The translations under genes were made by a program, and so were the position numbers. From a virus (taxonomy: Duplodnaviria > Caudoviricetes), in IMG/VR virus record IMGVR_UViG_3300033076_000411, positions 1 through 64,000 of that record: DNA of 64,000 bases. The stretch is one strand, 5' to 3'. Of the stretch, positions 3,652 through 14,703 are shown one piece after another; within the stretch, counting starts at the first letter, position 1; every line of letters begins with the position of its first letter. The notes below the pieces were generated by a model. That model saw only the letters and a list, made by a program, of their open reading frames with translations. It did no database searches and was not told where the DNA came from.

Positions 3652-5729
3652 TCAAATTTAAAAATTTAACTGTTAAAAACTTTATGAGTGTGGGTAATGC
3701 CACACAAGGCATTAACTTCGACCGTAACGACCTAACGCTGGTGCTAGGCGAAAACCTAGACCTAGGTGGCGATGGCTCGCGCAACGGCACAGGTAAGACT
3801 ACTATTATCAATGCGTTAAGTTATGCACTTTACGGTAATGCCCTAAGCAACATTCGCAAGGACAATCTTGTGAACAAAACCAACAGCAAGGGCATGTTGG
3901 TTAGTTTAGAGTTTGACGTCAACGGCAAAGAATACAAAATTGAACGCGGTCGCAAACCCAACGTGCTCAAGTTCTACGTTAACCACGAAGAGCAAGCCGC
4001 AACAGACGAAGCACAGGGCGAAAACAAAGAAACACAAGAAGCAATTGAGCGTATCCTGGGCATGAGTCATGATATGTTCAAGCACGTTCTTGCTCTTAAC
4101 ACATACACTGAACCGTTTTTAAGTTTAAAAGCCAACGACCAACGCACAATCATTGAGCAGTTGTTAGGTATTACTTTATTGTCCGAACGTGCCGACAAGA
4201 TCAAAGAACTCAACAAACAAACCAAAGATGCTATTTCTCAAGAAGAGTTCCGTGTTAGAGCCGTGCAAGAAGCCAACTCTCGCATAGAAGAACAAATCGA
4301 AAGTCTAAAGCGACGTAGTGGCCTATGGCAAAAGAAAATTGACAGCGACCTAGCATATCTAGCGTCCCAATACAATGAACTAGCAGAAATTGATATCGAA
4401 GTAGAGTTGCAGGCTCACAAAGATCTAGCAGTTTGGAGTGCAAAAAAGTCACAAGCCGACACATATAATGCACTGGTTGCTAGAGAAACTGCGTGGCGAC
4501 AAAAGCACAATAACGAAGTTGCTGAAGCAGGCCGTGCTTATTTAGACAAGAATCGCATCAACATCGAAACTGAGTTAGCAGCATGGGCGTCTTTAGCAGC
4601 ATACAATCAAAAAGCCAAAGACATTGCTGACTTAGAAAAACTCATTGCTCGTTGTGTTGCAGACGAAGCCAAAGAAAACAAACTTGTAGAGAAGTTAAAA
4701 GCAGAAGTTGAAGAACTAAAGAATCACAAGTGCTATGCGTGTGGCCAAGACTTCCACGACACTAATCACGAGTCAGTGCTAGCAGCAAAAGAAAAAGCCC
4801 TGCAAGAAGCAGCCCTGCAAGCACTGGCTACCAATACACAATGGATCGAAAATACTGATGCGTTGAAAGCGTTGGGAGAGTTAGGCACAAAGCCAACCAC
4901 GCATTACAAAACAGAAGCCGAAGCCATTAGGCATTCTAGCGAACTCAACAGTTTAAAGGCAGCGTTGGATGCCAAAGAAGCAGAAACCAATCCGTTCTCT
5001 GAACAAATCGAAGAACTAGAAGAAGTTATTGTTCCGCCGCAGCCTGCAACACATTACGACAAAGAGTCCGAAGCAATTGAGCATCGTAGTAAAGTAAACA
5101 ACCTGCTAGAGCAGATTGCTAAAAAGGGCGAAGAGAAAGATCCGTACACAGAACAGATTGAAGAAATGCAAAAGCAAGCCCTTCAAACTATAAATTACGA
5201 CACTATCAACGAACTCACAAGACTGCAAGAGCATCAAGAGTTCTTGCTTAAACTATTAACATCCAAAGACTCATTTGTTCGTAAGAAGATTATTGATCAA
5301 AACTTGGCGTATCTCAATCAACGATTAACACACTACTTGGATCGTATCGGATTGCCGCATACAGTTAAGTTCAACAATGATTTGTCAGTTTCAATTGAAG
5401 AACTAGGTCGAGAACTAGACTTTGACAACTTGAGTCGCGGCGAACGCACACGACTGATCCTGTCAATGTCCTGGGCATTCCGTGATGTTTGGGAATCGTT
5501 GTATCATCCAATCAACTTGTTGTTCATTGACGAACTCATTGACAACGGTTTAGATACATCAGGTGTCGAAAACGCACTGGGACTGTTGAAGAAAATAAGT
5601 CGTGAACGTCACAAATCTATTTGGCTTGTGTCTCACAGAGACGAGTTAGCCGGACGAGTAGAAAATATACTCAAAGTAGTCAAAGAAAACGGCTTCACGT
5701 CGTATAATACAGATATAGATGTCGCGTAA
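3648..5729 (+). CDS. gp46: Recombination ATPase, Rad50/SbcC-like
   Basis: Walker A GSRNGTGKT, central zinc hook CYAC, signature LSRGE, Walker B LLFIDE, H-loop SH; ATGA overlap with gp47. Confidence 0.93.
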   Translation: MIKFKNLTVKNFMSVGNATQGINFDRNDLTLVLGENLDLGGDGSRNGTGKTTIINALSYALYGNALSNIRKDNLVNKTNSKGMLVSLEFDVNGKEYKIERGRKPNVLKFYVNHEEQAATDEAQGENKETQEAIERILGMSHDMFKHVLALNTYTEPFLSLKANDQRTIIEQLLGITLLSERADKIKELNKQTKDAISQEEFRVRAVQEANSRIEEQIESLKRRSGLWQKKIDSDLAYLASQYNELAEIDIEVELQAHKDLAVWSAKKSQADTYNALVARETAWRQKHNNEVAEAGRAYLDKNRINIETELAAWASLAAYNQKAKDIADLEKLIARCVADEAKENKLVEKLKAEVEELKNHKCYACGQDFHDTNHESVLAAKEKALQEAALQALATNTQWIENTDALKALGELGTKPTTHYKTEAEAIRHSSELNSLKAALDAKEAETNPFSEQIEELEEVIVPPQPATHYDKESEAIEHRSKVNNLLEQIAKKGEEKDPYTEQIEEMQKQALQTINYDTINELTRLQEHQEFLLKLLTSKDSFVRKKIIDQNLAYLNQRLTHYLDRIGLPHTVKFNNDLSVSIEELGRELDFDNLSRGERTRLILSMSWAFRDVWESLYHPINLLFIDELIDNGLDTSGVENALGLLKKISRERHKSIWLVSHRDELAGRVENILKVVKENGFTSYNTDIDVA

Positions 5730-6585
5730 TATAAAAGTCTTACACTTAGAACCAACGGATGTGTGCCAGGCCGCATGTCCGTTGTGTGCTCGCGAAACAG
5801 ACCGGAACTTTCACAAACATCAACAACATCACTTGACTGTGCGTCAGGTACTAAAGCATTTTGATGATGATGCTATTCAACAGTTAGACAAGATGTTTAT
5901 GTGCGGCAACTACGGAGATCCAGTTGCTGGCAAAAACACAGTTGAACTATATCAGTACTTTAGATCAGTAAACCCCAACATTGTACTAGGCATGAACACC
6001 AATGGTGCTATTCAGAATCCGTTCTGGTGGTACGGTCTTGCTAAGATATTGAATCAACCACAAGACTATGTTGTTTTTTCCATTGACGGGTTAGAAAATA
6101 CCAACTCAGTGTATCGAAAGAATGTGGACTGGAACAAGTTAATGTCCAACGCAAGATCTTTTATAGAAGCAGGCGGTTCGGCACACTGGGACATGTTGGT
6201 TTACAAACACAATCAGCATCAAGTCGATGAGTGTGAGCAACTTGCCAAGGACATGGGATTCAAATGGTTCCGTGCCAAAGTATCAAAGCGTGGGTTCACA
6301 GACAGACTAGAAGCCCCTATTGGTTGGCTATCTCCCAATGTGCAAGGAACAAAAGTTAATTGTCACGCACTCAATGAGCAAAGCGCATACATCGACGCAC
6401 AAGGAAATTTAAGTCCTTGTTGTTGGCTTGGTGCTCGGCAAAAAGATTTTATTGCAAACTTTGATGAAATACAAAGTTCGTGGACTAGCATGCAACCTAA
6501 CATAGTGTGCTTAGATACGTGTGGTACCAAAGGTGTTAACACAAGTTTTTCAAATCAATGGCAGAGAGAAACACAATTATGTTAG
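5719..6585 (+). CDS. Radical SAM enzyme with C-terminal SPASM/twitch-like cysteines
   Basis: CQAACPLC (CxxxCxxC), MCGNYGDP, TNG, SIDG, C-terminal SPCCW...CLDTC. Ends in TAG. Confidence 0.85.
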   Translation: MSRNIKVLHLEPTDVCQAACPLCARETDRNFHKHQQHHLTVRQVLKHFDDDAIQQLDKMFMCGNYGDPVAGKNTVELYQYFRSVNPNIVLGMNTNGAIQNPFWWYGLAKILNQPQDYVVFSIDGLENTNSVYRKNVDWNKLMSNARSFIEAGGSAHWDMLVYKHNQHQVDECEQLAKDMGFKWFRAKVSKRGFTDRLEAPIGWLSPNVQGTKVNCHALNEQSAYIDAQGNLSPCCWLGARQKDFIANFDEIQSSWTSMQPNIVCLDTCGTKGVNTSFSNQWQRETQLC

Positions 6586-7589
6586 CCACTTGGCATTTTC
6601 ATATAGAAGTTTCAAGCAAATGTACCCTTGCTTGCCCTCGCTGTGCTCGTCAAGAGGTTCCCAACAGTCTTGTTAACACTGAACTAGACTTAGAGTTCTT
6701 TAAGAAGAACTTTACTCGAGAGTTTGTATTAGCAAACGTAGAGAAGATTACATTCTGCGGCGACGATGGCGATCCTATCTATGCACATGACTTGATTCCT
6801 ATCATCAAATATCTCAAAGATATCAAGCCTGTTGAGATTGTTATTATAACCAACGGTTCTTATAAAAAAGTTGAGTGGTGGGCAGCATTGGGAAATCTAC
6901 TGGATTCCTATGACAGTGTGCATTTTAGTATCGACGGCTACGACAATGCCAGCAACAACTTGTATCGTGTCAACAGCGACTACGACAGTATCATTGCAGG
7001 ACTGCAAACTCTGCGAGCCACAAGTCGTTGTAAAATTGTATGGGCTGCAATTGCATTCAAGTTCAACGAACACAAACTAGACTACATGCAGAACTTTGCA
7101 AAACAACTAGGAGTTGACGTATTCCAGTTAACAAAAAGCACAAAGTTTGGCAGTGTATATCCATCTTACGGTACAGACGATCCTCTTCAGCCCAGTGTAG
7201 GATTTGTTAGTAGTACACATCGATTTGAACGTGAAGTGACTGCGTTGTCTGAATCAGGCGAATGGCAATCAATTCCGTTAACAAACAACAAACTATTCAA
7301 TCAAACTAAAAGTCGTAACGGAGTTACTCCGTTATGCGAAATAGGCAACAAAGGATTGTACATTGATTCCCAGGGCAAATTATTCCCTTGCTGCTGGGTA
7401 GCAAACAGATACAACCACAATTCAGACTGGCAGCAAATAGCAAGCAACTTTAATTTAAACAAAAGAACTTTAACAGACGTATTAGCAGACTCGTTTTGGT
7501 CTACAGAATTTCAAACATTTAAGTGGCAGGAATGTCAAACCAAGTGCAAAAGTTCATTAGTAGACGAAAAATACGGTACTTCGTGGTGA
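6579..7589 (+). CDS. Radical SAM enzyme with C-terminal SPASM/twitch-like cysteines
   Basis: CTLACPRC, FCGDDGDP, TNG, SIDG, FPCCW...CQTKC. Start placed at ATG 6579 (MLATWHF) rather than 6558 because it overlaps the upstream stop. Confidence 0.85.
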   Translation: MLATWHFHIEVSSKCTLACPRCARQEVPNSLVNTELDLEFFKKNFTREFVLANVEKITFCGDDGDPIYAHDLIPIIKYLKDIKPVEIVIITNGSYKKVEWWAALGNLLDSYDSVHFSIDGYDNASNNLYRVNSDYDSIIAGLQTLRATSRCKIVWAAIAFKFNEHKLDYMQNFAKQLGVDVFQLTKSTKFGSVYPSYGTDDPLQPSVGFVSSTHRFEREVTALSESGEWQSIPLTNNKLFNQTKSRNGVTPLCEIGNKGLYIDSQGKLFPCCWVANRYNHNSDWQQIASNFNLNKRTLTDVLADSFWSTEFQTFKWQECQTKCKSSLVDEKYGTSW

Positions 7590-7607
7590 TCGTGATAACT
7601 ATGTTAC

Positions 7608-8042
7608 ATGACATGGCTTTACGAAAATCAACCAGTAGAAACACTACCCGAAGATTGTGTGGGCTTTGTCTACATCATCACTAACCTATCAAACGATCGC
7701 AAATACATAGGCAAAAAACTAGCAAAATTCTCTAAGACAACTTATAAAACAGTCAAACTCAAAAACGGCAGCAAGAAGAAAAAGAAGATCAAATCTAAGA
7801 TTGATTCAGATTGGCAAGAATACTACGGTTCCAGCCCTGAACTATCTAAAGATGTAGAACTTTTTGGCAAAGACAATTTTAAAAGAGAAATACTTTATTA
7901 CTGCAAATCTAAATCAGAGTGTAGTTATATCGAAGCAAGAGAACAATTTTCACGCAGAGTGCTAGAATCCAAAGACTGGTACAACGGCCACATTCAAGTC
8001 CGTGTACATGGCAGTCACATAATCAACAAACTAAACGGTTAA
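7608..8042 (+). CDS. Small GIY-YIG nuclease-family protein with Lys-rich insert
   Basis: GFVYIITN..N.RKYIGKK (GIY-YIG), YYGSS, REIL, EAREQF, YNG; Lys-rich stretch KTVKLKNGSKKKKKIKSK. Confidence 0.75.
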   Translation: MTWLYENQPVETLPEDCVGFVYIITNLSNDRKYIGKKLAKFSKTTYKTVKLKNGSKKKKKIKSKIDSDWQEYYGSSPELSKDVELFGKDNFKREILYYCKSKSECSYIEAREQFSRRVLESKDWYNGHIQVRVHGSHIINKLNG

Positions 8043-8483
8043 GCAGTTACGGCCCGCACAAGCCAATATCGTGTGCCCTAGACCTGGATCTCGGATCACA
8101 GGGATGGAAGTCTCACCGCGCTAGTGAGCACTCAATCACTATCCTTGACAGGACGAAGATCGCGAAATGCTGCGGTTTGATTGTTTGAACAGAATTTAAA
8201 AAAGCAAAAAGACGCTACCGTGGGGTAGCACGTTTGTACGTATGTTAGCGTATATTGTACAAGCCGCCGTTGTGATAAAGACGACACTCGAGGTACCGGA
8301 CAACCGCCTCTGTAATGTGTTAACGCTAAGTGACTTGCCCGACTCGGATGAAGTTTCTTTGCCCTGTGCGGGCAAAGTGTGACCATAAGATCTGGATGAA
8401 GACTTAAATCGCTTCGCTCTTTGTAACAATAACATTAACGAGCGATAGCGAAGTTAATAGATGTGCGTAGCACATCTTGATAG
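8043..8483 (+). ncRNA. Candidate large structured non-coding RNA (unassigned; strand inferred)
   Basis: About 440 nt without a credible gene; at least nine hairpins found by eye plus long-range complementarities (see findings). Confidence 0.55.
8459..8477. terminator. Perfect 8-bp hairpin between convergent transcription units
   Basis: AGATGTGC-gta-GCACATCT, 6 nt from the stop of the - strand operon; no strong U tract. Confidence 0.4.
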
Positions 8484-8819
8484 TTAAAACTTATCTGGCC
8501 AATCTCTAAACAGTGCATGTTGAATATTGCCACTGACAAATTGATTAAAGGATTTGTGTTTAGTTTCGAGTTCTCCTTGTTGAGGTGCTACTCGTTTAAA
8601 TGCTTCGTCCATTTGAGCCATGTCACGAAACTCCATGATAATCATCCATTCTGGCATGTCTGCGATTGAACGGAATCCCATCTTGCATCTTGTGATGCGA
8701 TAACTCTCCATTTTACCTTCTGATATAAGATGATCAAAGAATCCCTTCATGCCATTGACCCAGTCAATGTCTGATATGTCGCCTTCTTTGTCTGCCCAAA
8801 TTGTATATAAATCTGCCAT
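8484..8819 (-). CDS. DUF6614-like small protein
   Basis: MADLYTIW.D......D..W...MK.F.DHL.SEG.MESYRITR.K.G.......EW.I.MEF.DMAQMDEAF pattern; start at ATG 8819, one base after the amidinotransferase stop. Confidence 0.55.
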   Translation of the reverse strand: MADLYTIWADKEGDISDIDWVNGMKGFFDHLISEGKMESYRITRCKMGFRSIADMPEWMIIMEFRDMAQMDEAFKRVAPQQGELETKHKSFNQFVSGNIQHALFRDWPDKF

Positions 8820-8820
8820 G

Positions 8821-9954
8821 TTAACCTCTCTGTGGAAAATAATCTTGTTGTGTACCTTCTCGGTGTAAATCACTAGTTACGCAGTGTATGCCACCGTCCC
8901 AAAAATATCGATGTCTAAATGGGACTATGTGTGGAGTTACGCCGTGCCGTTCCAATGCGTCAAATACCAGTTTGTTGTAGTTAAACACTATGACATTTTT
9001 CGGATCAATAATCAGCATGTTGACATCAAACACAGTTTCTTCAACGTACCCAGTCCAGTGCCCTAGCCATCTCTCTACAATGTCAATAACGTCTTGGTCA
9101 TGTTCGAATCCTGGAATCCACCACTTGCCGGCATTTTTTAGTTTTAGATTTAAGAACGCCGATACCTTAGACCAACTCTGTCCAGGAAGATAAACAACTT
9201 CCCAGTCTGGGAATGTATTGGCATACGTTGGCACGTCTCTAAGACTTACGATTAGTCCTGGGCACACAGGACAATATGTGCCATCACTGTGGCCTCCTGT
9301 GTTGATAATATGGTTTCTGTTATCTGGAAATTCTTTGTTGACAAATTGCCTAAAGTCAGTGGTGTCTCGATTATAAGCATCTGTGCCAAAATACAAATCT
9401 TTGCCAATGCGTGATATCTGTGCGCCATTTAACAGTGTTGGATGATAGTGATGTGATTTGATCTGGTTTTCTTGTTTGCGAACATAATCAAAAATATGAT
9501 CGTATGTAGAGTAAAATTTTCTATAAGCCTTAAACTCATGTACGTTGTTGCATTCGTCTTGGATCCATTGGGGCAACGACAAAAATTCTTCCATAGAGCA
9601 ACAATCGGGCCAACTTGGATCCTTGACGTCTTGGTAAGATTTTTTATAATCAAAACTATAATTTTCGTAAAATGTATCGCCGATCATAACAGTGACATCT
9701 CTTGGGCACATAGGCGGCGGCATAAATCTGCCATTGATAAATGTTGTATCTGCTAAGTTTGGACGCAGAACCTCAACTCCAAACTCTTGTAGTTTTTTTA
9801 TAATAGCCTGATAATCTTCTTCGGTCTCTGTAGCAATGCGTTCAAACAATGAACGCACATGTGGTACTGTGATCCAGGAATAAAATTCAGGAGGGTAACT
9901 GCGCCCAACAATGCAAGCCTTCAGCGGATCCCAGTGCTGATATACAGAAAACAT
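8821..9954 (-). CDS. Amidinotransferase-family enzyme (glycine/inosamine-phosphate amidinotransferase-like)
   Basis: N-terminal WDPLKACIVGR, CPRD (Asp), GHSDG (His), FDVNML, GGIHCVT (Cys nucleophile). Confidence 0.85.
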   Translation of the reverse strand: MFSVYQHWDPLKACIVGRSYPPEFYSWITVPHVRSLFERIATETEEDYQAIIKKLQEFGVEVLRPNLADTTFINGRFMPPPMCPRDVTVMIGDTFYENYSFDYKKSYQDVKDPSWPDCCSMEEFLSLPQWIQDECNNVHEFKAYRKFYSTYDHIFDYVRKQENQIKSHHYHPTLLNGAQISRIGKDLYFGTDAYNRDTTDFRQFVNKEFPDNRNHIINTGGHSDGTYCPVCPGLIVSLRDVPTYANTFPDWEVVYLPGQSWSKVSAFLNLKLKNAGKWWIPGFEHDQDVIDIVERWLGHWTGYVEETVFDVNMLIIDPKNVIVFNYNKLVFDALERHGVTPHIVPFRHRYFWDGGIHCVTSDLHREGTQQDYFPQRG

Positions 9955-10388
9955 TACTCTAAGGGCCCTAGTATTTCAAATCCGTCTATTTGAGATTTGT
10001 ATAAGTGCGCTTGCTCAAGATACAAGTATTGGAATCCTCGTTCCTTGTAGATAGCGCACTCTGCTTTCATTGTTTCAATTCCTAAACGTAATTTAGGATT
10101 GCTGTAGTTCCATGCGAACTGATCGCATAGCGCATTTTTGTCATCGTAGCGTTTGATCAATGAGAACGCTGCTAGTTTATCTCCGTCGTAATAGCCTATA
10201 ACATCAGTCATAGGATCAGTGTAACGGCTGTCAAATATAGGCATTACTGACGCAAAATGCTTGTACTTGCAGTAGTCTCTGTATATGCTATTCAACTTAG
10301 AAATGTCTGGTTTTCGCAGATATTCCCACTTCACACTGGGCGTGTAGTTGGTTTTACTTAGATCTATTCTTGCAAACTGATAGGTCAT
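9954..10388 (-). CDS. GNAT-fold protein resembling the C-terminal domain of aminoacyl-tRNA:protein transferases (Ate1/Bpt)
   Basis: GYYDGDKLAAFS...LRLGIETMKAEC...KERGFQYLYL...YKSQIDGFEIL parallels the ATE_C pattern YY.DG.L.A...SLG..SIL.EI..A...G..YLYLG...YK..F...E. Confidence 0.55.
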   Translation of the reverse strand: MTYQFARIDLSKTNYTPSVKWEYLRKPDISKLNSIYRDYCKYKHFASVMPIFDSRYTDPMTDVIGYYDGDKLAAFSLIKRYDDKNALCDQFAWNYSNPKLRLGIETMKAECAIYKERGFQYLYLEQAHLYKSQIDGFEILGPLE

Positions 10389-10888
10389 ACTCGCGGATCT
10401 TGTCTATGCTGAAACAGTGCTTGCAAATATTCTTCTGGCCACGCATCATAAAAACCTTTTGCGGCCATTGTTTTGGCTTTGGCATTTAGGTCTGAAAGAC
10501 TTTGCACCAACGCCATGGCATACTTGCCTTGATTCATAATAACACCATTGACGTTTTCTACATCACTGGGATGATCTTCTAAAGCAAGAATATCGTTGCG
10601 CAACAAGTGATCGTTGTTTGCTGCTGCGATGCTTGCGGCGAACAGTTCGTGTGGCCATTCAACTGGATCATACACATAGATAACAACTTCTTTGTTGCCC
10701 ATGCCGTACCTTGCTCTATTCTTTAGATCAAAATACGGATCGGACCCTAGATAAACTTCAAATGTGCGTTTCATTCTCGCAGACCTTGCAAAAGGGCAAG
10801 GTGGAAATCCGCCTAGCGCAGGATGCGGAACTTCTACAAAGTTCACAATCCATGATTCTATATCTGCTTTTACTTGTTCTAGTTCCAT
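10385..10888 (-). CDS. Hypothetical protein, DUF1415-like
   Basis: W...FV......G..PCPFAR and later EDHP motifs resemble DUF1415 (LCPFA...FHP). Confidence 0.4.
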   Translation of the reverse strand: MELEQVKADIESWIVNFVEVPHPALGGFPPCPFARSARMKRTFEVYLGSDPYFDLKNRARYGMGNKEVVIYVYDPVEWPHELFAASIAAANNDHLLRNDILALEDHPSDVENVNGVIMNQGKYAMALVQSLSDLNAKAKTMAAKGFYDAWPEEYLQALFQHRQDPRV

Positions 10889-11076
10889 TAGAAGAACGGC
10901 ATTTTAGATTTCTTAGTAGTTTCAAGGTTATCCTTGATGATGTCTCCGATCATCTGACGTTCCTTCATACTCATTTGCAGGGCTTGTTCGTAACTTACGC
11001 CTCCACGCATGTACCACGACATTTTTAAACTCTCTTTTCGGAGATTGTCGGCTTCTTTTTCCATGTTATCAACCAT
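10888..11076 (-). CDS. Small baseplate-hub/tail-assembly protein (gp51-like); possibly expressed as a -1 frameshift extension of the upstream gene
   Basis: MSWYMRGGVSYEQALQMS..ER..I..IIK.N resembles gp51-like small proteins that follow gp26; frame is open back through the slippery site at 11118-11124. Confidence 0.6.
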   Translation of the reverse strand: MVDNMEKEADNLRKESLKMSWYMRGGVSYEQALQMSMKERQMIGDIIKDNLETTKKSKMPFF

Positions 11077-11102
11077 CTCCGAAACTTGCTCAAATGTAGA
11101 GT

Positions 11103-11945
11103 TTAGGAGGCGGGTACGAAAAAACTTGTCATATCCAATGTCAACGGCTGTGTGTATTCGTGACTGCAATGTTGGCATTTAACATCCAGTGGTTTGAGAT
11201 CGCTGGATTCGCGAAGTGCAATCACATGATCCTTGATAGAGTTAAACAAGTTGCGGTCGCAATTTTTCAAGAACTCTTGGATGTATTCAGTTTCTGTAAC
11301 AATTGCATTTGGTGTGCGGATGCTAGAAATACTGTACTTTATGGCCTCAATTGTTAATTCTGTGATTTGCTTTAAAACGTCCTGGAGTCGCTGCAATTTC
11401 TCTTCGTCTGGCAGATCAGAATTTGGGATCAGTTGCAACATACGCTGATTCTCAAACTGCAATTGATTTGTTTCGTTTTGACGACGATATGTCAGCGGTT
11501 GGAACGTAACTTCTAAATCACCGTAGGTAATAGACTTAGAAAAATCTGGCATTTTCATTTGATCTAGTACACTGCGCAGATCCAATGTATAGTCGTCGGT
11601 TGTGTTGCAATTTGGGCAAGTTGTAGTAAGTTCTAAATTGTGTCCGTAACTAGCAATACGAATTGCAGTTAATATAGCATTTAAATCGGGTGCTGGGCAT
11701 TCCCACGCATCCTTGATATCAGGCACACAACTTTGCACAACACTTACCACGGCTTGACCGTTGAACAACGCATCGGGTGTGCGATACGTGATTTCGTCAA
11801 TGGCAGTCATTGGATAAATTGGTAGTTCCTTGTTGCGCGGCAGGTTTATAGAACCATCAGCCCAGAATTCGCCGCGACTGGGCAGAGGCAAATAAATTGA
11901 CGGTTGACGGAAATATTGCATTAACGGGTTAGGATTTTGGGACAT
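11103..11945 (-). CDS. gp26: Baseplate hub assembly protein, gp26-like
   Basis: LPSRG.F...PMTA.DE...TPDAL.NG, D...IL.AIRIASYG, two CxxC pairs, C-terminal SFF. Confidence 0.7.
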   Translation of the reverse strand: MSQNPNPLMQYFRQPSIYLPLPSRGEFWADGSINLPRNKELPIYPMTAIDEITYRTPDALFNGQAVVSVVQSCVPDIKDAWECPAPDLNAILTAIRIASYGHNLELTTTCPNCNTTDDYTLDLRSVLDQMKMPDFSKSITYGDLEVTFQPLTYRRQNETNQLQFENQRMLQLIPNSDLPDEEKLQRLQDVLKQITELTIEAIKYSISSIRTPNAIVTETEYIQEFLKNCDRNLFNSIKDHVIALRESSDLKPLDVKCQHCSHEYTQPLTLDMTSFFVPAS

Positions 11946-11953
11946 AGATCACC

Positions 11954-11961
11954 TATAAATA
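11954..11961 (+). promoter_or_regulatory. T4-type late promoter
   Basis: Exact TATAAATA 24 nt upstream of the tape-measure-like gene. Confidence 0.75.
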
Positions 11962-11985
11962 TAGTTCTACTTATGGGTACTTTAC

Positions 11986-14703
11986 ATGGCCGATCTAAAT
12001 AACGAAGCACAAGAACTAGCCGCAGTAATGCGTCAAGTAAACCAAGACTTAACACAATTTGGTAAACTGACCTCACAAACTGCTGAACAGTTGCGAGATG
12101 CACAGGTAAAAGCCAAATATGGCATTGATAACTTTACCGCGGGCATGAATACCGCAGGCAATGCTATTGGCAAATATGTTGATGCCCACACTGATGCTGC
12201 AAAAGCAGTTTACAACGGTGAACGTGGTGCCAAGGCCTTTAATAAATCTCTGGACAGTTTAACAGAAGCAGCCAAGTTAGCAGCAGTTGGCTTGTCAGTA
12301 ATGGTGCCCGGTGGCCCGCTGATCAAAGGTCTAGTAGCCGGTCTTGGGTTGTTAGCTGCCAAAGTCTACGAACTCAGTAACGAATATACCAAAGCAGCCA
12401 ACGTAATGAGTGACACCCTGTTCAAGGGGTTCCAGGACATGAGTGCTGCTGGCGGATCTGCGTCAGATGGTATGAAAGGCCTGTTTGAAGATACCAAGAA
12501 ACTAGGCCTGTCAATGAGTCAGTTGGATTCGTTTGTCCAACTGGTAAACAAAAACAGTCATGATCTAGCATTGTTTGGTGGCACTGTTTTTGAAGGTCGC
12601 AAGAAGTTTGCTGAGATGGGTCAAGCCATGGAGGCCAGCCGCGAAAGCCTGATGAACATGGGCTTGACTCAAGAGCAGATCAACGAAGGTGCAATGAGTT
12701 ACCTGCGTTTGCAAACTCGCTTGGGCAATTCACAAAAGATGACTACCGAGCAGTTGGCCGAAGGTGCTCGAAAGTATTTGGTTGAACAAGATGCGCTGAC
12801 AAAACTCACAGGTGCTACTCGCCAAGAACAAGAAGACATGCGTCAGGAAGCACTCACTGAGCAAATGTTTGCAGCACAGATCCGTGAACTACAACTCAAA
12901 GGTGATGCAAAGTCTTTAAAGGCCGCTGAAGAATTAATGCAAGCCAACATCATGGCTACCAAGGTTAGTAAAGAGTTTGGCGCATCTTTCCGTGCCAGCG
13001 TCACAGGCAACTTGTTGGATCCAAATGCACAAAAGTTAAACATGGCAGCACAAGGTGCGCAGTTTGAACAAATTGAGAGACTCAAAGACGGCACACAAAA
13101 TGCTGCTGGTGCTATTACTACCATTGGGCGAGCAATTGGCGAGTCTGGTGATAAGTTCGGTGTAGAACTTGCTAAACTTGGGGTAGCAGATGACTTCATG
13201 TTGAAGTTTGGTGAAATACAAAAGATTCGTATTGCAACCGAAGGCGACCTTAATGCTAACTTGAAAAAGATTGCTGACGACCAAGCAAAGATGGGCGCCA
13301 AAGGCGGCAAAGCAGCAGACGCAGCAGTAGCAGCACAAGTACAGTTAACATTAACACAACAAAAAGCCAACGAAATTCTTGAACGTTTTGTTGAAAAAGG
13401 TCTTGTTGATGCTACTCGCGAAATGATTAAGTTTGCTGAGAAGGTAGAGTTTGCTGGAAAAGTGCTTGGTAAGATTTCCAATGGTAAGTTTATATCGCAG
13501 CAAGAAGAAGCAGCAAATACCAACGCAGCCGTAAAGAATCAAATTACTGGTGTAGGTGCAAAGTACGAAGCAACTACAGACGAACAAAAGGCTATGATTG
13601 AAGCCTTGAATGATCCTAATGTTAGCGAGCGTGACAAGGCATGGATGCGTCAACAACTAAAGAACGTAGAAGCCCGTGCCATGGGCGGCCCTGTTAAAAA
13701 AGGTAGTCCGTATCTAGTTGGCGAAGAAGGTCCAGAATTATTTGTTCCTACCATGGCAGGTGAGATTGTGCCCATGGGCGGTGGCGCTGCAATGACCAGT
13801 GCATCGGCACAAAAAGCAGATCAAATTGAACGTGCAGTTCGTGACATCATTGATGACACTAAAAAACTCGAGCGTATTACAGACTCAGACCTACACAGAG
13901 TAGAAAAATTCAGTGACTTACAAAAGAAGTTTTTTGATCTAAGATCAAGATTTTATGAAGACCAAATTACTGCAATGACTACCACAGTGGTTGGAACACC
14001 TACAATGTCTTCAGGAGGAGGCGCCGCTGCTCCGTCAAGCGGCGGTGGACTAGGTCTTAAAACTTCTGCTCCATCTGCTCCGGGATCGGGCGCCGGCGGC
14101 GGTATGTCACAAAGTGATCTGGCTGGGCTAGGTCTTAAAATCAAAGCAGGCGATGTACAAGCAGAAGGTGCAGGCATTAGTCCTAAAATTATCAGCATGG
14201 CAGAGCAAGTACAAGCCAACATGCCTAACTTTGCATATTTCTCAGGATTCAACGACAAGTTCCATCAGGAAAAATCACCTTCGAGTTTCCATACCAAGGG
14301 TCAGGCCATGGACTTTGCATTGAGCAAGGCACCTACTCCTGAAGAAGGCCAAGAGATTGTTAACTGGTTAAAGAGCATGGGCGCAAGCACAGCAATTGAC
14401 GAATACAACAATCCAAGTTCTAAAGCAACAGCAGGACACATCCATGCGCAAATTGCAGGATATGCAGACGGTGGTATTGCCAACGAGCCGCAGATTGCTA
14501 TGGTTGCTGAAAAAGGCCCTGAAGCAATGGTACCACTTAAAAACGGTGCTATTCCAGTTGAAGGCTTCCAGGAAGCAGTTAATGCTCTGCGAGCCATGCA
14601 AGAACAAATGGGCGCACTGTACGAAGCAATGAGTGACATGGTTAGAGAGCAACGCAGTACAAACGATATCAGCGCAAAGATACTTCAAGTGTCTGCTAAT
14701 TAA
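11986..14703 (+). CDS. Tape-measure-like/baseplate hub protein with C-terminal M15-like peptidase domain
   Basis: Long Ala/Gln/Lys helical region, two RA.GGPV...YLVGE.GPE.FVP-type repeats, H..G.A.D plus HIH motif near C-terminus. Confidence 0.75.
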   Translation: MADLNNEAQELAAVMRQVNQDLTQFGKLTSQTAEQLRDAQVKAKYGIDNFTAGMNTAGNAIGKYVDAHTDAAKAVYNGERGAKAFNKSLDSLTEAAKLAAVGLSVMVPGGPLIKGLVAGLGLLAAKVYELSNEYTKAANVMSDTLFKGFQDMSAAGGSASDGMKGLFEDTKKLGLSMSQLDSFVQLVNKNSHDLALFGGTVFEGRKKFAEMGQAMEASRESLMNMGLTQEQINEGAMSYLRLQTRLGNSQKMTTEQLAEGARKYLVEQDALTKLTGATRQEQEDMRQEALTEQMFAAQIRELQLKGDAKSLKAAEELMQANIMATKVSKEFGASFRASVTGNLLDPNAQKLNMAAQGAQFEQIERLKDGTQNAAGAITTIGRAIGESGDKFGVELAKLGVADDFMLKFGEIQKIRIATEGDLNANLKKIADDQAKMGAKGGKAADAAVAAQVQLTLTQQKANEILERFVEKGLVDATREMIKFAEKVEFAGKVLGKISNGKFISQQEEAANTNAAVKNQITGVGAKYEATTDEQKAMIEALNDPNVSERDKAWMRQQLKNVEARAMGGPVKKGSPYLVGEEGPELFVPTMAGEIVPMGGGAAMTSASAQKADQIERAVRDIIDDTKKLERITDSDLHRVEKFSDLQKKFFDLRSRFYEDQITAMTTTVVGTPTMSSGGGAAAPSSGGGLGLKTSAPSAPGSGAGGGMSQSDLAGLGLKIKAGDVQAEGAGISPKIISMAEQVQANMPNFAYFSGFNDKFHQEKSPSSFHTKGQAMDFALSKAPTPEEGQEIVNWLKSMGASTAIDEYNNPSSKATAGHIHAQIAGYADGGIANEPQIAMVAEKGPEAMVPLKNGAIPVEGFQEAVNALRAMQEQMGALYEAMSDMVREQRSTNDISAKILQVSAN

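Follow-up and report, generated by a model that had tools for sequence, protein, structure and literature searches.

What is encoded in the gene-free stretch that follows a small nuclease gene in the DNA of a giant phage? The window that we analysed, 64,000 nucleotides long, comes from the start of an 83-kb IMG/VR viral contig (CheckV completeness, 24%) with relatives that include complete T4-like genomes of 345-349 kb, and its source is an uncultured giant lake phage. The stretch is flanked by two convergent genes, which encode a GIY-YIG protein (7608-8042, + strand) and a DUF6614 protein (8484-8873, - strand). A sequence-only reading of the window had proposed an ornate non-coding RNA at this position and, by analogy with HEARO and omega RNA, a ribonucleoprotein of that RNA with the nuclease. 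The RNA itself stands: conserved structure on the + strand, with covariation downstream of related GIY-YIG genes, confirms positions 8043-8476 (+ strand) as a genuine conserved structured non-coding RNA gene of ~430 nt, and we infer that the molecule is RNA rather than structured single-stranded DNA. The ribonucleoprotein is not supported, because the nuclease is found without the RNA, the RNA is found without the nuclease, and near-identical proteins lie beside different RNAs.

The first part of the stretch belongs to a catalogued family. Positions 8051-8186 (+ strand) matched Rfam RF01718 (Polynucleobacter-1) with 120.1 bits (E = 1.5e-25) over model positions 1-141 of 141, the curated gathering score being 37 bits. 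A search of 7500-9000 at E values up to 10 returned RF01718 alone and no family for 8187-8483. A match to a known family unrelated to the nuclease had been named beforehand as evidence against the sequence-only reading, and the match to RF01718 counts against it in part. The Polynucleobacter-1 motif was described from 16 sequences (Weinberg et al. 2010, Genome Biol 11:R31, PMC2864571). It was found downstream of one gene family, GOS11034, which is similar to PSSM2_218 of cyanophage P-SSM2 (PMC2864571, supplement), and a copy was present in Polynucleobacter QLW-P1DMWA-1 and none in any purified phage as of 2010 (PMC2864571). Here the RNA lies 3' of a GIY-YIG gene with single-copy relatives in T4-like cyanophages, which may belong to the GOS11034 family. 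Elsewhere in the window, Rfam identified a full-length RF02980 freshwater-2 RNA, classed as cis-regulatory, at 25215-25296 (+ strand; 72.8 bits, gathering score 49.9) and a tRNA gene (RF00005, 40.1 bits) at 22049-22121 (- strand).

The remaining ~290 nt have no Rfam family yet are conserved in more than 100 viral contigs. We gathered 200 viral loci through a motif-derived pattern and a protein search with the GIY-YIG gene, and BLAST and nhmmer showed 8043 to ~8420 to be conserved throughout, at 61-90% identity in more than 70 loci; DNA similarity of the stretch to cultured phages was not found. On this evidence the stretch is the predicted full-length form of an orphan Rfam motif, of which the catalogued model covers the first third only, and which has been listed since 2010 merely as a 141-nt fragment. 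New relative to RF01718 are a double-pseudoknot core, twin boxes, a tail hairpin and alternative 5' domains, and so is the presence of the motif in phage contigs. A group I intron, a usual home of GIY-YIG genes, was rejected: Rfam group I models gave no match up to E = 10, and the flanking genes are complete and convergent. A coding stretch was likewise rejected, since only short open reading frames overlap it and the box-to-box distances are not divisible by three; the sequence also has a stop codon after box 1 in the window frame.

The fold was derived from an alignment of 50 non-redundant sequences (A1), on which the pairing model was also counted. RNAalifold predicted 58 pairs, with compensatory changes in 34, and a scan of all column pairs contributed the pseudoknots, giving a model of 72 pairs in 15 helices. 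In this model 97.3% of the cells are standard pairs, as against 84.6% in shuffles; none of 500 shuffles matched its pairing, and 45 of the 72 pairs have changed on both sides. When the 3' partners were moved by 1-3 columns as a control, only 34.5-41.5% remained paired. Some G-U pairs are invariant or nearly so (e.g., 8244-8251 and 8294-8306), which identifies the + strand as that of the RNA. Folded as a single sequence, the window's copy reached -136.7 kcal/mol (z = -3.06, 100 shuffles). The predicted features, all on the + strand, are as follows.

7608-8042, +: upstream neighbour, outside the RNA; encodes a 144-aa protein with a GIY-YIG catalytic domain only; its stop codon is the left cassette breakpoint
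8051-8186, +: 5' domain, a full-length match to RF01718; replaced by another 5' domain in other RNA classes
8051-53/8062-64, +: pseudoknot of the 5' domain, from the pairing model on A1
8056-60/8072-76, 8112-15/8125-28 and 8143-44/8151-52, +: helices of the 5' domain, with covariation
8083-89/8095-8102, +: helix of the 5' domain, conserved and varying little
8133-38/8178-83, +: long-range helix of the 5' domain, with covariation
8158-63/8172-77, +: last helix of the 5' domain, from the pairing model on A1
8187-8231, +: A-rich linker and a variable hairpin (8214-8229) with covarying outer pairs
8232-8329, +: conserved core with two pseudoknots, from the pairing model and covariation
8232-37/8259-64 plus 8240-44/8251-55, +: core hairpin, whose loop 8245-50 pairs with 8324-29
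8284-87/8317-20 plus 8290-94/8306-10, +: second core hairpin, whose loop 8300-04 pairs with 8269-73
8341-8352, +: twin box 1, N-A-CUC followed by the 7-nt word GGAUGAA (8346-8352)
8357-8384, +: between the boxes, a G+C hairpin (8357-64/8370-77) with covariation and the conserved UGUGACC (8378-8384)
8389-8400, +: twin box 2, N-A-UCU followed by the same word (8394-8400)
8434-8458, +: tail hairpin, stem 8434-39/8453-58 with the conserved loop GAGCGAUAGCGAA (8440-8452); common to the phage classes and the bacterial copies
8460-8476, +: terminal hairpin of 7 bp with loop GUA, abutting the stop codon of the convergent DUF6614 gene

The helices of the RF01718 domain (helices 1-8 of the model) are 94-100% paired, and each contains at least one pair that has changed on both sides. 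In the variable hairpin, the outer pairs (8214-16/8227-29) appear as GC, CG, UA and AU. Three pseudoknots are predicted in all, one in the 5' domain and two in the core; that of 8245-50 with 8324-29 has both-side changes in all six of its pairs. The tail loop motif, GA(G/A)C(A/G)n0-4AG(C/U)GA, occurs in 140 of 177 distinct tails on 42 different stems, and the terminal hairpin in 137 tails with 48 different arms; both predicted hairpins are supported by covariation. Since they are conserved past the twin boxes, the RNA probably extends from ~8043/8051 to 8476. The terminal hairpin (8460-8476), which a simple terminator scan did not call, is likely to be the 3' end of the RNA or a terminator. 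A terminator-like score was obtained for 8157-8188 (+ strand), the last hairpin of the RF01718 domain with a U-rich run, and a short form of ~140 nt, equal to the catalogued motif, may exist together with a long read-through form. We also observed that UCGCUUCGCUC (8409-8419, + strand) is complementary to the conserved tail loop GAGCGAUAGCGA (8440-8451, + strand). This pairing, which excludes the tail hairpin, is found in classes 1 and 3 of the RNA (defined below) and is absent from class 2 and the bacterial copies; it could be a switch.

Ten of the twelve pairings in the sequence-only reading agree with the alignment, one of them in its outer half only. They include the helices at 8056/8072 (GCACA/TGTGC), 8083-8102, 8112/8124, 8142/8150, 8214/8224, 8234-8262 and 8357/8370. 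The proposed long-range pairing of CAATCA at 8133 with TGATTG at 8178 is borne out by covariation as 8133-38/8178-83, and the pseudoknot-like contact of loop 8245-8251 with 8323-8329 returns, one position shorter on each side, as 8245-50/8324-29. For GAGG..CGG/CCG.CCTC (8290-8310), the outer half was retained and the inner CGG/CCG pairs are displaced, because 8269-73 pairs with 8300-04. That pairing, which shows covariation, also replaces the suggested hairpin of GTTGT at 8269 with ACGAC at 8281, whose outer pair forms in 9 of 107 sequences. A contact of AAGTCT at 8108 with AGACTT at 8400 was abandoned, as only 17-77 of the 107 sequences pair per position. The same reading had noted a purine motif at four places; those at 8346 and 8394 change together and are the twin boxes described below, whereas conservation at 8102 and 8151 comes without such coupling.

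The boxes are two copies of N-A-YYY-X-G-A-U-R-A-W that flank the G+C hairpin at 8357-8377 and the conserved UGUGACC. Their 7-nt word is the same in both boxes at all 188 loci where both were found, and eight different words occur in phages. Among 107 distinct class-1 RNAs, the 12-mers agree at all variable letters in 106, and the mutual information from box to box is 0.89-1.06 bits, every other column giving at most 0.53. A tree for which the boxes were masked requires at least 31 changes of the word, each of them made in both boxes, and phylogenetically independent pairs show changes in the same way in 8 of 8, 6 of 6 and 4 of 4 cases at the three main variable letters. One difference is fixed, namely CUC in box 1 and UCU in box 2 in all 107 aligned RNAs; such a constant difference would be lost if the two copies were being homogenised, which is therefore unlikely. 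The nearest RNAs with different words are just 89% identical elsewhere, and turnover of the word is therefore steady rather than explosive. Taken together, the alignments show two predicted elements that are constrained to identity while their sequence drifts, and that change in step.

Exchange is also seen at the scale of the whole RNA. GIY-YIG genes ~80% identical to that of the window precede three kinds of RNA: class 1 is the RNA of the window; class 2 has the same core with another 5' domain; and class 3 is mostly different, ending in the same box-hairpin-box-tail layout with the word ACAUGAA. GIY-YIG proteins that are 99.3% identical lie beside different RNA classes and words. In pairwise comparisons of loci, homology is lost precisely at the GIY-YIG stop codon; in the pair examined it returns immediately after box 2. 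The RNA is for this reason regarded as an exchangeable cassette. Such exchange between conserved flanks points to diversifying selection on the putative RNA. The comparisons show a predicted build of successive modules: a 5' domain that can be exchanged, the conserved core with its two pseudoknots, an output module in which the boxes flank the G+C hairpin, and finally the tail and terminal hairpins.

The neighbouring protein (144 aa) is a SegE-type catalytic domain alone (Pfam PF19835 SegE_GIY-YIG, E = 1.6e-33; phrog_447) and is misnamed 'NAD synthetase' in databases. By tblastn, its family was found in 508 cultured phage records, at one place in each and with at most 51% identity, including T4-like cyanophages, Melnitz, phiM12 and ACP17. 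In the four relatives inspected (Melnitz-3, C48C1, phiM12 and S-SRM01), the RNA is absent and ~30-150 nt follow the GIY-YIG gene. The gene lies upstream in 92 of 111 matches to the RNA-core pattern, most of the others being chance matches without boxes, and it adjoins the RNA in ~92 of 99 informative phage loci. The gene order is gp47, gp46, optional radical SAM genes, GIY-YIG and RNA, and the adjacency is attributed to this shared synteny behind gp46/gp47. In the window, the interval from the gp46-like gene to GIY-YIG is occupied by a pair of neighbouring radical SAM genes (5719-7589, + strand), of which one encodes a SPASM domain; many related phages have neither at this position. Other genes, which are not homing endonucleases, separate GIY-YIG from the RNA in ~17% of the phage loci, and this junction is therefore an insertion hot spot. 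Among the inserts are an ORF of 265 aa, a B12-binding radical SAM gene accompanied by a 151-aa ORF, and a 356-aa ORF (examples at L141:3429-4226, L083:4678-6488 and L247:536-1606). In three phage contigs the RNA stands behind unrelated ORFs without GIY-YIG. These distributions show the predicted RNA to be independent of the GIY-YIG gene; within phage, a loose functional tie is possible.

The GIY-YIG protein is under strong purifying selection, two loci (L188 and L197) being 99.3% identical in amino acids but ~87% identical over the DNA stretch that includes the gene, and by this measure it behaves like an essential enzyme and not a decaying homing endonuclease. At another pair (L195 and L197), the gene has 96% DNA identity, an upstream flank that cannot be aligned and a downstream flank of ~76%. 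The idea that GIY-YIG is a mobile homing cassette carrying the RNA was rejected, because its apparent other contexts proved to be the same gp47-gp46 neighbourhood. A literature search found nothing relevant on GIY-YIG proteins with a structured RNA.

Among 121 Polynucleobacter species genomes, 13 contain one copy or two that pass the RF01718 cut-off. In the raw alignment of Weinberg, the Polynucleobacter copy likewise continues through the core and the twin boxes (word AGCGAAA) to the tail. The bacterial words include AGCGAAA, AGAGAAA, GGAGAAA, AUCAAAA and AACAAAA, and two copies in one Polynucleobacter genome carry different words. All 14 bacterial loci have a DUF6641 gene in divergent orientation to the RNA, a 188-aa tyrosine recombinase (catalytic domain only) 0.3-1.3 kb downstream of the RNA, and no GIY-YIG gene. 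In QLW-P1DMWA-1 (L453; G039:C1:2123000-2139000), positions ~7140-13900 hold DUF6641, the RNA, a 258-aa ORF, the 188-aa tyrosine recombinase and a 293-aa ORF, and the island beyond the recombinase also has a 260-aa ORF, an AAA ATPase and a 424-aa integrase-like gene. A 1.8-kb stretch there (5362-7138) is without ORFs of at least 90 aa. ORFs matched in size and order were found at two other bacterial loci, with ordinary chromosomal genes flanking the module. By this comparison, a putative RNA gene is shown to be common to giant freshwater T4-like phages and small Polynucleobacter islands.

Neither bacterial neighbour follows the RNA into the complete phage genomes. DUF6641 was rejected as a partner, being absent from three complete phage genomes and RNA-free at five loci; it has no similarity to the phage DUF6614. 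No tyrosine recombinase was found in the three complete RNA-bearing phage genomes. A similarity between the RNA core and the recombinase ORF was put down to chance, since the matching stretch lies within the recombinase coding sequence and the exact motif occurs at 4 of 14 loci. The literature held nothing relevant on DUF6641 or on RNA-guided tyrosine recombinases.

A complementary partner of the boxes was sought in several places. No complement was present in cis within 4 kb on either side at 169 loci, or near six bacterial copies, and no site at aligned positions tracked the word in three complete phage genomes that have three different words. Box-complementary runs of at least 10 nt in these three genomes look like noise, and two 13-nt matches among them were rejected because they lie in unrelated coding regions. 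Within the RNA, an apparent covariation of the boxes with 8264-66 in 50 sequences was gone in 107; the U/G-rich 8180-86 was set aside as it offers wobble pairs only and never varies; and a complementarity peak at +40 was traced to the near-palindromic box 2. The word was also rejected as an att core, as it and its complement are absent from the ends of six bacterial islands.

What, then, might the RNA do? The reading that we tentatively prefer, and to which we give slightly less than an even chance, is that of an autonomous, multiply pseudoknotted RNA of ~430 nt that would act in trans, with the twin boxes as matched addresses and the word as a specificity code. Since no promoter-like site was found between the GIY-YIG stop codon and the RNA, the phage copy would be transcribed as the 3' end of the gp46-...-GIY-YIG operon, and the transcript would stop at the terminal hairpin. 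Both boxes would serve as address elements for one sequence-specific reader, most probably a nucleic acid; one complementary strand could bind either box, because CUC and UCU both pair with GGG. The word would be a code for self versus non-self under diversifying selection, comparable to the antisense-RNA loop sequences that set plasmid incompatibility or phage immunity. A nucleic-acid partner, with the word as a specificity code, is favoured because identity, and not a particular sequence, is conserved; in addition, close relatives have diversified in their cassettes and words, and copies that share a genome are unlike. The same identity pattern would, however, arise from hypervariable loops that are read by a protein or cut by an enzyme. 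If the word is a specificity code, it would represent a new means of self/non-self or target addressing for giant phages and small mobile elements. The function is open to experiment through the identity-locked drifting loops, the swapped cassettes and the island copies in cultivable Polynucleobacter strains.

Several other explanations are possible, which we rank, in decreasing order, as a dimeric protein reader, processing sites, a role in DNA or replication, and a ribonucleoprotein with the nuclease. A protein scaffold or decoy, in which the identical loops bind the halves of a dimeric host or phage protein and, for example, sequester a host factor or defence protein, is unlikely, though it deserves consideration: two equivalent loops ~48 nt apart would fit a dimer, the ornate conserved core resembles that of RNP scaffolds, the presence of the RNA in a lytic phage and in small bacterial islands makes a host-wide partner plausible, and the searches found no nucleic-acid partner. 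Its cost is that the base specificity of the protein would have to shift at least 31 times at four positions, while the neighbouring proteins do not follow the word and the constant CUC/UCU of 107 RNAs is left unexplained by a protein reading. A shifting specificity also burdens the view, in our opinion improbable, that the boxes are processing sites where one endoribonuclease would cut twice and free a hairpin unit of ~48-57 nt, similar to a type III antitoxin. Phages are known to mimic type III antitoxin RNA, the layout is indeed one repeat unit between two copies of the same 12-15 nt, and differing words in the two copies of one genome would suit cognate pairs; yet the enzyme would need a new specificity at every change of the word, the RNA is not followed by a gene for a toxin-like endoribonuclease, and ~300 nt of conserved pseudoknotted RNA would be left without a role. 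A purely local function, in which the RNA, as a cis-acting 3' UTR, would stabilise the operon mRNA or terminate it, we regard as the least probable of all. The operon invariably closes with the RNA, whose own end is formed by hairpins, but a stabiliser needs no 430 nt, three pseudoknots, invariant unpaired stretches or twin boxes, and the bacterial copies stand alone, divergent from DUF6641.

The protein-coding neighbours suggest further readings. Tyrosine recombinases need an overlap of ~7 bp whose sequence is arbitrary but the same in both partners, and a 7-nt word that is the same in two places follows this rule. The boxes could be the cores of such a recombinase, or the transcript could prime or control replication of the phage or island; this is consistent with the recombinase 0.3-1.3 kb downstream of every bacterial copy, and with the AAA ATPase and the 424-aa integrase-like gene of the island. 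We nevertheless hold such a DNA-level role to be rather improbable, given that three complete RNA-bearing phage genomes lack a tyrosine recombinase, the box flanks vary without conserved protein-binding arms in the alignment, the word is absent from the island ends, and a spacing of ~48 bp is too short for excision. The exact fit of the boxes to the overlap rule leads to a more speculative version, for which we see only a slender chance: the twin-box RNA would lend programmable specificity to DNA transactions, with its identical words each pairing with the same core in two DNA partners. It would then supply site recognition to the catalytic-domain-only 188-aa recombinase and possibly to the 144-aa GIY-YIG protein. 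That the RNA is a guide or partner of the adjacent nuclease, as the sequence-only reading proposed, appears very improbable. The frequent adjacency in phage and a protein that is a catalytic domain only, with no DNA-binding domain, speak for it, but the adjacency is accounted for by the synteny behind gp46/gp47 and is interrupted by other genes in ~17% of loci. Moreover, the GIY-YIG family lives without the RNA in cultured phages, the RNA without GIY-YIG in three phage contigs and 14 bacterial loci, and 99.3%-identical proteins serve as neighbours of different RNA classes and words. The autonomous RNA with matched addresses accordingly remains our preferred reading.

To our knowledge, few conserved bacterial or phage RNAs reach several hundred bases with complex folds, and those with known functions are ribozymes, RNP scaffolds and guide RNAs. 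HEARO and omega RNA (of IscB and TnpB) share with the RNA described here a large structured RNA beside a small nuclease gene on mobile or viral DNA, but here there is no RuvC or HNH protein, no variable guide at the RNA end, no protein-RNA co-evolution and no obligate co-occurrence. A guide RNA would carry a variable segment that matches its target; the variable letters here are internal and duplicated, with no complement within 4 kb. The bridge RNA of IS110 is similar in that two loops of one RNA have short specificity sequences that share letters, and in the small recombinase beside the RNA (here in bacteria). It differs in that the recombinase here is a tyrosine recombinase, not a DEDD enzyme, and that the loops are identical to each other rather than matched to target and donor; the ends of six islands give no match, and the complete phage genomes are without a tyrosine recombinase. 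Type III toxin-antitoxin RNAs are tandem repeat arrays, in contrast to the single unit between two boxes here, which is followed by the convergent DUF6614 gene in phage or by a variable ORF and the recombinase in bacteria. GOLLD and ROOL show no sequence or model similarity to our RNA, and we know of no twin identical hypervariable loops in either; they are, like it, orphan phage-encoded RNAs of several hundred nt with a complex conserved fold. In ColE1 RNA I/II, P1/P7 c4 and P4 CI, short arbitrary loops must match a partner, set immunity or incompatibility, and diversify. The RNA described here differs from these antisense specificity RNAs in being far larger and more ornate, in having no Rfam similarity to them, and in the lack of a complementary target nearby or genome-wide in three complete phage genomes, but it shares with them loop sequences that are short, arbitrary and diversifying.
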